Origin: Escherichia coli
GTDB taxonomy: Bacteria; Pseudomonadota; Gammaproteobacteria; Enterobacterales; Enterobacteriaceae
Reading direction: 5' to 3' (one strand)
DNA: 19,253 bases
Assembly (NCBI RefSeq): GCF_003334335.1
Contig: NZ_QOWQ01000055.1
Every line of letters begins with the position of its first letter. The stretch's first letter is position 1. The notes beneath the pieces are model-generated. The model was given only the letters and a program-made list of their open reading frames with translations, did not search any database and was not told the origin of the DNA. This document shows, piece by piece, positions 1,599 through 1,991 of this stretch. The position numbers and the translations under genes are program-made.

Positions 1599-1991
1599 TC
1601 ATTGATGCAATTCGTAGATTTGAAGAAGTTCAACTGCCACATTTTTATTTTTACTATCGCAATTTTTATACCATACCCATGCTTCCGTATTTTTTACTTT
1701 TTTTAAATCATCCATAATAAAATCCCCACCAAAAACAGTAAAATACAATGTTTCCTCATTAAAAATAAAACTCACTGCCCCCCCCTCTTTTATTTTAATT
1801 TCCGCTTCATTTGTGTTCAAATCAACTTTTTTAATTACTCCATGTAAGTTGGGTTTTGATAGTTTTTCTACGCCACCATCAGGAGCGGGTAATATACATC
1901 GTTTAAGAACTTTAGCATTTGCACATCCAATAACCCAAATTAGAATGCACACTCCCATGTTAATCGCATTAACGTGTCTTAAAACGTTCAT
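1599..1991 (-). CDS. Rhs-associated immunity protein, exported (signal peptide with possible lipobox VIGC)
   Basis: 130-aa ORF whose start overlaps the rhs stop by 23 bp (1969-1991), the typical toxin-immunity arrangement. N-terminus [26 protein letters not shown] is signal-peptide-like. AT-rich like the adjacent toxin domain. Confidence 0.6.

Follow-up and report, generated by a model that had tools for sequence, protein, structure and literature searches.

An exported immunity gene of Escherichia coli, probably stranded by recent loss of its Rhs toxin

Is an intact gene for an exported protein, lying directly downstream of a broken rhs toxin gene, still kept as a defence, or is it left over from the loss of a weapon? 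The question is raised by a locus in a stretch of 19,253 nucleotides of Escherichia coli DNA (contig NZ_QOWQ01000055.1 of assembly GCF_003334335.1; hereafter the window, meaning the whole stretch that was analysed). The initial annotation, made from the sequence alone, described a 130-aa immunity open reading frame (ORF) retained behind a disabled Rhs toxin gene. All the sequence features that it named were found where it had placed them; its claim of retention fared less well.

The ORF lies on the minus strand (1599..1991), begins with ATG in the ORF list, and has identical annotated counterparts in strains 720632 and ML35. Its product is identical to WP_001101839.1, annotated as ‘hypothetical protein’, and the gene is present in 1021 of 5426 complete E. 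coli genomes. The rhs ORF upstream, also on the minus strand, terminates at 1969 (stop counted), so that the two have 23 bp in common; the coordinates confirm the overlap with the rhs stop that had been reported. Direct reading of the sequence revealed a Shine-Dalgarno-like motif inside the rhs 3’ end (1992..2007, minus strand), the purine-rich GGAGAGAG, located 9–16 nt upstream of the immunity ATG. Since the second in-frame ATG, at Met12, has no comparable ribosome site, the long form is the likely product of the ORF.

The rhs gene survives as two fragments. The distal one, taken from the ORF list, is a 660-aa ORF with a GTG opening (1969..3951, minus strand) that lies downstream of a break in the frame. 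The proximal one (3984..6045, minus strand; ORF 3984..6041) was delimited by alignments to the loci L001 and L002, and has neither the start nor the promoter of the gene: the alignment with an intact rhs of 4245 bp stops at window position ~6045, so that the first ~150 bp of the 5’ end are gone. The genes vgrG, hcp and tssB-tssM were lost along with them. Relative to ML35, whose rhs copy is labelled ‘missing N-terminus’ by PGAP, the frame was broken at window position 4023, where one of two tandem GTTCACC copies is missing; this 7-bp slippage deletion was absent from all 5426 complete E. coli genomes. We considered a sequencing artefact and judged it unlikely, given the clean loss of one tandem 7-bp unit. 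The rhs gene is therefore both 5’-truncated and frame-broken, as initially described. Past the break, the reading frame of the toxin domain remains open.

The window corresponds to the T6SS-1 island linked to aspV on the E. coli chromosome, and also includes tRNA-Asp, dnaQ, rnhA, gloB and mltD. Strain 720632, which is 100% identical over window positions 1200–2700, encodes in this order hcp, vgrG, rhs (4245 bp), the ORF and an ISAs1 (H-repeat) element beside yafV, with tssB-tssG in the opposite direction. ML35 is nearly identical to the window (3 substitutions plus 2 deletions over 19 kb). Its rhs is without ~150 bp at the 5’ end and lies head-to-head with a C-terminal tssM fragment, whereas vgrG, hcp and the genes from tssB to most of tssM are gone. 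The same junction is found in at least 57 complete genomes. Two changes are private to the window relative to ML35: the 7-bp deletion at 4023, and a deletion of 754 bp that shortens the tssM/IcmF C-terminal remnant, which together with the deletion junction now occupies 6046..6609 (plus strand). Because rhs has no start or promoter, its frame is broken and the locus is without the secretion apparatus, it is well founded that no deliverable toxin comes from this locus. The earlier statement that the toxin is probably not made holds.

What the gene used to deliver can be read from its 3’ part. A PxxxxDPxGL motif (2431..2460, minus strand), found in the translation and by a match to Rhs_assc_core (TIGR03696), divides the Rhs core from a C-terminal toxin domain of 153 aa (1969..2430, minus strand). 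The GC content is 62–69% in the rhs core versus 32–45% in the C-terminal domain and the immunity ORF. The Pfam profile YkuD (PF03734) matches the toxin domain (E = 3.4e-5) as well as 13 of its 17 homologues, whereas the profile DUF2778 matches none of the 17. Among these homologues (30–54% identity) a His and an Arg are invariant and a Cys nearly so (H96, R120 and C118, respectively), and these conserved columns place the catalytic His at 2145..2143 and the catalytic Cys at 2079..2077 (both minus strand). The two are 22 residues apart (H-x21-C), which is the canonical YkuD spacing. Searched with the sequence of the toxin alone, the PDB returned chance matches only, and the toxin profile matched merely the ends of Rhs cores. 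The structural model (pLDDT 81.6) was more informative: the best eight Foldseek matches in the PDB were all YkuD-fold enzymes, led by Csd6 (E = 1e-4). Among them are L,D-carboxypeptidases (Csd6, Pgp2 and Bd1075), a YkuD transpeptidase and, as a weaker match, Tlde1a (seventh, E = 0.12). The domain is thus classed as a YkuD-fold L,D-peptidase.

L,D-peptidases of this kind have precedents on Rhs proteins. The Tox-LD-peptidase was catalogued on RHS proteins by Zhang et al. 2012 (PMC3482391), and the arrangement described there is the same as here, i.e., an L,D-peptidase at the C-terminus of RHS repeats, linked to T6SS and with an immunity gene next to it. Another similar system is Tlde1, with its immunity protein Tldi1 (formerly Tae5/Tai5), of the Salmonella SPI-6 T6SS. 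Tlde1 also attacks periplasmic peptidoglycan as a thiol L,D-peptidase with a catalytic His and Cys; its immunity protein also has a Sec signal peptide, and the superfamily includes orphan immunity genes. The authors of the study on Tlde1 noted that some members are fused to Rhs, e.g., in Shigella sonnei, and showed that the toxicity of Tlde1 is restricted to the periplasm (preprint 10.1101/2020.02.18.954545). The two systems are nevertheless distinct. The toxin studied here matches YkuD and not DUF2778, its His and Cys are separated by 22 residues instead of 10 (H121 and C131 in Tlde1a), and Tlde1a ranks only seventh among the structural matches of its model. Tlde1 is a small cargo effector, whereas this toxin is borne by an Rhs cage, and the immunity protein here does not match DUF2195 but is a beta-barrel of an unnamed family. 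From the YkuD-type domain, the Tox-LD-peptidase catalogue and the periplasm-only toxicity of Tlde1, we infer that the toxin acts on peptidoglycan in the periplasm. Toxins delivered by Rhs cages usually work inside the cytoplasm (PMC12994826); a payload directed at peptidoglycan is less common on these proteins.

The immunity protein seems to be addressed to the same compartment. Its N-terminus has a positive n-region (R5) and a hydrophobic core followed by V-I-G-C23. This signal peptide region (aa 1–22; 1914..1991 on the minus strand including the cleavage sites) was delimited by a pattern test, and a helix is predicted at residues 12–25 with low pLDDT. Together with Arg5 in the n-region and an Ala in position +2, V-I-G-C23 passes a lipobox rule similar to PROSITE PS51257 ([LVI][ASTVI][GAS]C closing the signal peptide), which places the putative lipobox Cys23 at 1925..1923 (minus strand). 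A Shigella protein 99% identical to the product of the ORF is called ‘Lipoprotein’ in UniProt. However, directly after the lipobox the same test found a signal-peptidase-I site of equal quality, ANA26|K (ANA24–26, 1922..1914, minus strand). In the alignment it corresponds to SASA|K of the closest homologue, a protein without a lipobox, and all but 4 of the 40 family members are without one. A hydrophobic N-terminal segment precedes the conserved Cys in 38 of the 40 aligned members (maximal 10-residue hydropathy of at least 2.1); the member P0033 is N-terminally truncated. Export of the immunity protein is well supported by these patterns, whereas the odds that it is lipidated are no better than even. 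The initial annotation had proposed a signal peptide with a plausible lipobox, consistent with a periplasmic target. The signal peptide and the fit to the lipobox rule stand, lipidation has to be weighed against the rival site and the rarity of lipoboxes in the family, and export toward a periplasmic target is in line both with the conservation of the signal peptide and with the type of enzyme to which the toxin belongs.

The family of the immunity protein had to be built, as the protein has no sequence match in Pfam, NCBIfam or the PDB. A word-indexed protein search recovered only near-identical E. coli copies and fragments. The family emerged from an exhaustive HMMER search with the immunity protein, which gave 64 proteins, of which ~40 are diverged representatives (117–210 aa, 28–50% identity). 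They share a hydrophobic signal-like segment, a motif C-[VIL]-L-P-x-P-D-G and, later in the sequence, F/Y-G-G and W-x-x-x-C. Pro35, Asp38, Gly51, Gly88 and Gly89 are invariant in the family, and Cys32, Leu34, Trp107 and Cys111 are nearly so. Cys32 and Cys111 are absent jointly in the two members that lack Cys32, a pattern typical of a disulfide, which points to an oxidising compartment. The AlphaFold2 model of the protein (mean pLDDT 87.9) is a small beta-barrel that structurally resembles OB-like barrels and DUF5666/DUF3221 proteins, with no named immunity family among its neighbours. When 40 family members were compared with Pfam, none matched DUF2195 (the family of Tldi1a), Imm16 (DUF2750) or Imm57. 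A weak match to DUF4367, found in Pfam for a single one of the 40 members, was discounted as spurious. The protein appears to represent an additional immunity family, not yet named, against toxins of the L,D-peptidase type.

The genomic contexts of the homologues speak for an immunity function in two ways. First, the homologue P0041 (about 30–34% identity) starts 3 nt after a toxin homologous to that of the window (46% identical, RWVHGGGS..., locus L013). This is the one independent case of the toxin/ORF pairing that was found outside E. coli; behind three other toxin homologues lie exported proteins of other kinds. These unrelated partners also carry signal peptides, which again indicates a periplasmic site of action. 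Second, P0025, which at 50% identity is the closest homologue, has Imm57, Rap1a and MafI2 genes as neighbours in an array. Another homologue is fused to a scrap of rhs core without toxin, one relative is labelled an integron cassette protein, and the contexts of P0029, P0039 and P0076 were uninformative. The family shares this array with two Imm57 genes, but the protein of the window matches neither Imm57 nor Imm16 (DUF2750) in Pfam, and Imm57 is described as mostly alpha-helical (PMC3482391) whereas the immunity model is mostly beta.

Two of these contexts deserve a separate description. The array (loci L003-L005, at about 3376–9213 of L003) is an enterobacterial immunity array between msrB/yeaC and pncA/ansA, with two Imm57 genes, a Rap1a-like gene, the 50%-identical homologue of the ORF, a DUF7668 gene and MafI2; no toxin genes were called in it. 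The loci L014-L018 encode stand-alone or short YkuD-type toxin homologues, some with signal-peptide-like N-termini of their own. The exported proteins encoded after them fall into two other unrelated families, which may be alternative immunity families.

The 130-aa ORF is very probably the cognate immunity gene of the Rhs toxin. The assignment is well supported because the family is exported, a distant member is paired again with a homologous toxin, and other members belong to immunity arrays. The ORF could in principle be something else, i.e., an unrelated small periplasmic protein or lipoprotein that happens to lie beside rhs, or half of an internal toxin-antitoxin pair. The absence of a match to a named family in Pfam, NCBIfam and PDB sequences and the generic OB-like fold would fit this reading, and rhs toxins are reported to be expressed internally as toxin-antitoxin-like modules in Salmonella (PMC7043789). 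Yet the ORF overlaps the rhs stop, the pairing with the toxin recurs in a distant lineage and homologues belong to immunity arrays. A peptidoglycan enzyme without a signal peptide should moreover do no harm in the cytoplasm, and the internal P2 promoter is not conserved. We consider this reading hardly credible. The assignment as cognate immunity gives a testable function, that of periplasmic partner of a YkuD-type Rhs toxin, to a ‘hypothetical protein’ of about one fifth of the complete E. coli genomes.

Together, these elements lead to the explanation that we favour and regard as probable: the ORF is the rhsI gene of a T6SS-delivered Rhs toxin with a YkuD-fold L,D-peptidase C-terminal domain, and it was stranded by the recent loss of the toxin, apparently without being actively maintained. 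The Sec machinery would export the immunity protein, which would then be released by signal peptidase I after ANA26 or anchored by a lipid at Cys23. In the periplasm it would fold into a small beta-barrel, probably pinned by a disulfide between Cys32 and Cys111. There it presumably binds and blocks the incoming toxin. As for the history of the locus, a single deletion took the rhs 5’ end, vgrG, hcp and tssB-tssM, and the private 7-bp slippage broke the remaining frame afterwards. The stranded gene could still protect its carrier against E. coli with an active module, if it is transcribed.

An arrangement with a dead toxin gene and an intact immunity gene is of a known kind. In the orphan modules of CDI and Rhs systems (Poole et al. 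2011, PMC3150448; Koskiniemi et al. 2014, PMC3967940), one also finds a toxin fragment without start, an intact immunity gene and IS elements. Classical orphan modules, however, have a functional main gene upstream of them and are considered to be maintained, whereas here the main gene itself was disabled by an island-wide deletion and sister genomes show decay of the immunity gene. The alternative is that the orphan gene is under selection, i.e., that a weaponless strain keeps and expresses it against E. coli that still fire the same Rhs toxin. With the immunity gene in 1021 of 5426 complete genomes, attackers do exist. Family members are found in immunity arrays, without toxin, and as an integron cassette protein. 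There are also precedents: CDI orphan immunity genes are expressed and protective (PMC3150448), and orphan Tai6 and Rap1a are found in Salmonella (10.1101/2020.02.18.954545). The fate of the gene in other genomes bears directly on this alternative.

Ten genomes with the same rhs truncation were compared. The immunity gene is intact in five of them, which is compatible with weak selection, but it is broken in the other five (three frameshifts in a G8 tract and two IS1 insertions). IS1 insertions and a 5’ truncation are also seen in other lineages, e.g., in BL21(DE3) (E. coli B) IS1 took everything through the first 35 nt of the ORF, start included. In 40 carrier genomes, sampled systematically from the 1021, the gene was in-frame in about 70%, frameshifted in 20% and truncated in 10%. 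We fetched all eight frameshifted cases of this sample and nine in-frame ones. The rhs gene was disabled in 6 of the 8 genomes with frameshifted immunity versus 2 of the 9 with in-frame immunity (odds ratio 10.5, Fisher p = 0.057), an association that is not significant at 0.05 in samples that are small and made of genomes related by descent. Two of the genomes with frameshifted immunity have an intact rhs with vgrG and hcp. The direction of these data suggests that the immunity gene stays intact as long as the toxin works, and decays later.

The intactness of the ORF in the window says little about selection. The ORF is identical to the copies at intact loci, and at near-zero divergence there was too little time for a neutral ORF of 393 bp to decay, so its intactness is uninformative on this point. 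The comparison suggests that the intact ORF mainly reflects a recent loss of rhs rather than active maintenance. As for transcription, the promoter upstream of rhs is gone, and the rhs 5’ end abuts the divergently oriented tssM fragment. The best promoter-like site upstream of the immunity ORF (2355–2326) is just a 9-of-12 match. We rejected the internal rhs promoter P2 of Salmonella as a source of transcription, as the corresponding region reaches only 69% identity and has damage in both hexamers. Selection for orphan immunity is therefore rather improbable: the gene is broken in half of the genomes with the same truncation and disrupted in other lineages, its disruption tends to go with that of rhs, its intactness carries no signal of selection, and promoter-like matches are weak, with P2 unconserved. 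The claim that the gene is retained is not supported by the comparison, given the five broken copies in ten genomes, the lost start in BL21(DE3) and an intactness that is expected from recency alone. The orphan-immunity arrangement holds in that an intact ORF remains without a functional cognate toxin, and it is not supported in so far as it implies preservation in lineages that lost the toxin.

Under the favoured explanation of stranding and decay, the locus exists in natural stages, with the intact weapon first, then the stranded immunity gene and finally a remnant. Such a series bears on whether orphan immunity genes are maintained, and the small sample studied here suggests that they are not.

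The way in which the gene breaks is peculiar. Every frameshift allele that we examined maps to the G8 homopolymer, identified by comparing tracts among the fetched genomes, which spans codons E69-G70-G71-A72 (1778..1785; the run of G is on the coding, minus strand). Its length is 6, 7, 9 or 10 in 11 fetched genomes, whereas six control homopolymers (T7, C6, G6, A8, A7 and A7) never vary in the same genomes. The changes in length look like real slippage and not like general assembly error, although a G-specific sequencing error is possible. The tract is out of frame in two genomes with apparently intact hcp-vgrG-rhs. One could thus imagine the tract as a contingency locus, in which slipped-strand changes switch immunity off and on. 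We regard this as quite unlikely; if true, immunity to a T6SS toxin would be phase-variable, rather than either present or decaying.

A further possibility is that the toxin domain and its immunity gene are held in reserve as a silent cassette, which homologous recombination could move onto a full-length rhs. The ~4 kb of rhs core that were kept would allow it, since a related core is found at a median of 8 places per genome, and the frame of the toxin domain is open downstream of the break. The reported activation of orphan Rhs toxins in Salmonella offers a precedent (PMC3967940). On the other hand, the module is decaying in sister genomes, and delivery requires a working T6SS whereas T6SS-1 is deleted here. 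This makes a reserve function very unlikely, and stranding remains the preferred explanation.

The same toxin/immunity module was also found, with vgrG, at another chromosomal site in E. coli 2014C-3655 (locus L036, 7501–14330). The site lies between pptA and yncH, near narI, in the neighbourhood of RhsE, and both rhs and the immunity gene are frameshifted in it. This copy suggests that the module has moved between rhs loci.

Downstream of the immunity gene the locus again resembles classical E. coli Rhs elements, which have a GC-rich core, an AT-rich C-terminal domain and downstream ORF, and then an ISAs1/H-rpt element. It differs from them in its place in the aspV T6SS-1 island, with hcp and vgrG upstream when intact. 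The ISAs1-family (H-repeat) element occupies 1..1312 (minus strand). It was recognised from the annotation of relatives, its transposase ORF runs off the start of the window, and its end was placed by multi-copy matches. Between this end and the immunity stop, a terminator scan and folding identified a terminator-like hairpin with a T-run (1535..1558, minus strand), consisting of AGCATCACGTGATGCT followed by GATTTTTT (a T6 run). The hairpin has a folding energy of -14.4 kcal/mol (z = -2.85). The consensus terminator scan gave 3 sites versus 2.6 expected, i.e., chance level. The hairpin lies inside a partial, diverged copy of the ISAs1/H-rpt left end (~78 bp; 1488..1565, minus strand), identified by comparison with the IS end at ~1312 and with IS-end motifs. 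The true IS end carries a degenerate second copy, which folds no better than shuffles. The palindrome noted initially is real, with its hairpin and T-run, and it may terminate transcription, but it is probably not the immunity gene’s own terminator: it was brought in with debris of mobile elements.

This debris includes a fragment of a group II intron (D1-D4; 1282..1402, minus strand), matched by Rfam RF01999 with 81.8 bits against a gathering score of 36. The fragment sits between the ISAs1/H-rpt left-end repeats, and GTGATCTTTCCCTG flanks it at 1299 and 1474. A literature search for links between group II introns and H-rpt or Rhs returned nothing relevant. The unit formed by the IS end and the intron (window positions 1172–1491) was found again at other loci in other E. 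coli genomes.

Both sides of the island show additional changes. At window positions 1–74, the 3’ end of the ISAs1 transposase differs from ML35 and the other relatives, in which the IS adjoins yafV. The left flank of this strain was probably rearranged, possibly by recombination between H-rpt copies. On the other side, the private 754-bp deletion in tssM shows CTAC/TAC microhomology, and an intact TssA/VasL-like gene comes next (6620–7972). It is followed by an intact hcp (7996–8478), a 309-aa ORF with a glycine-rich hydrophobic C-terminal region (8507–9436) and ykfM, which encodes a membrane protein (9446–9925). The 309-aa ORF has no match in Pfam or NCBIfam. The set of hcp, 309-aa ORF and ykfM persists despite the deletion of the T6SS core, and may be a second stranded effector-immunity pair.
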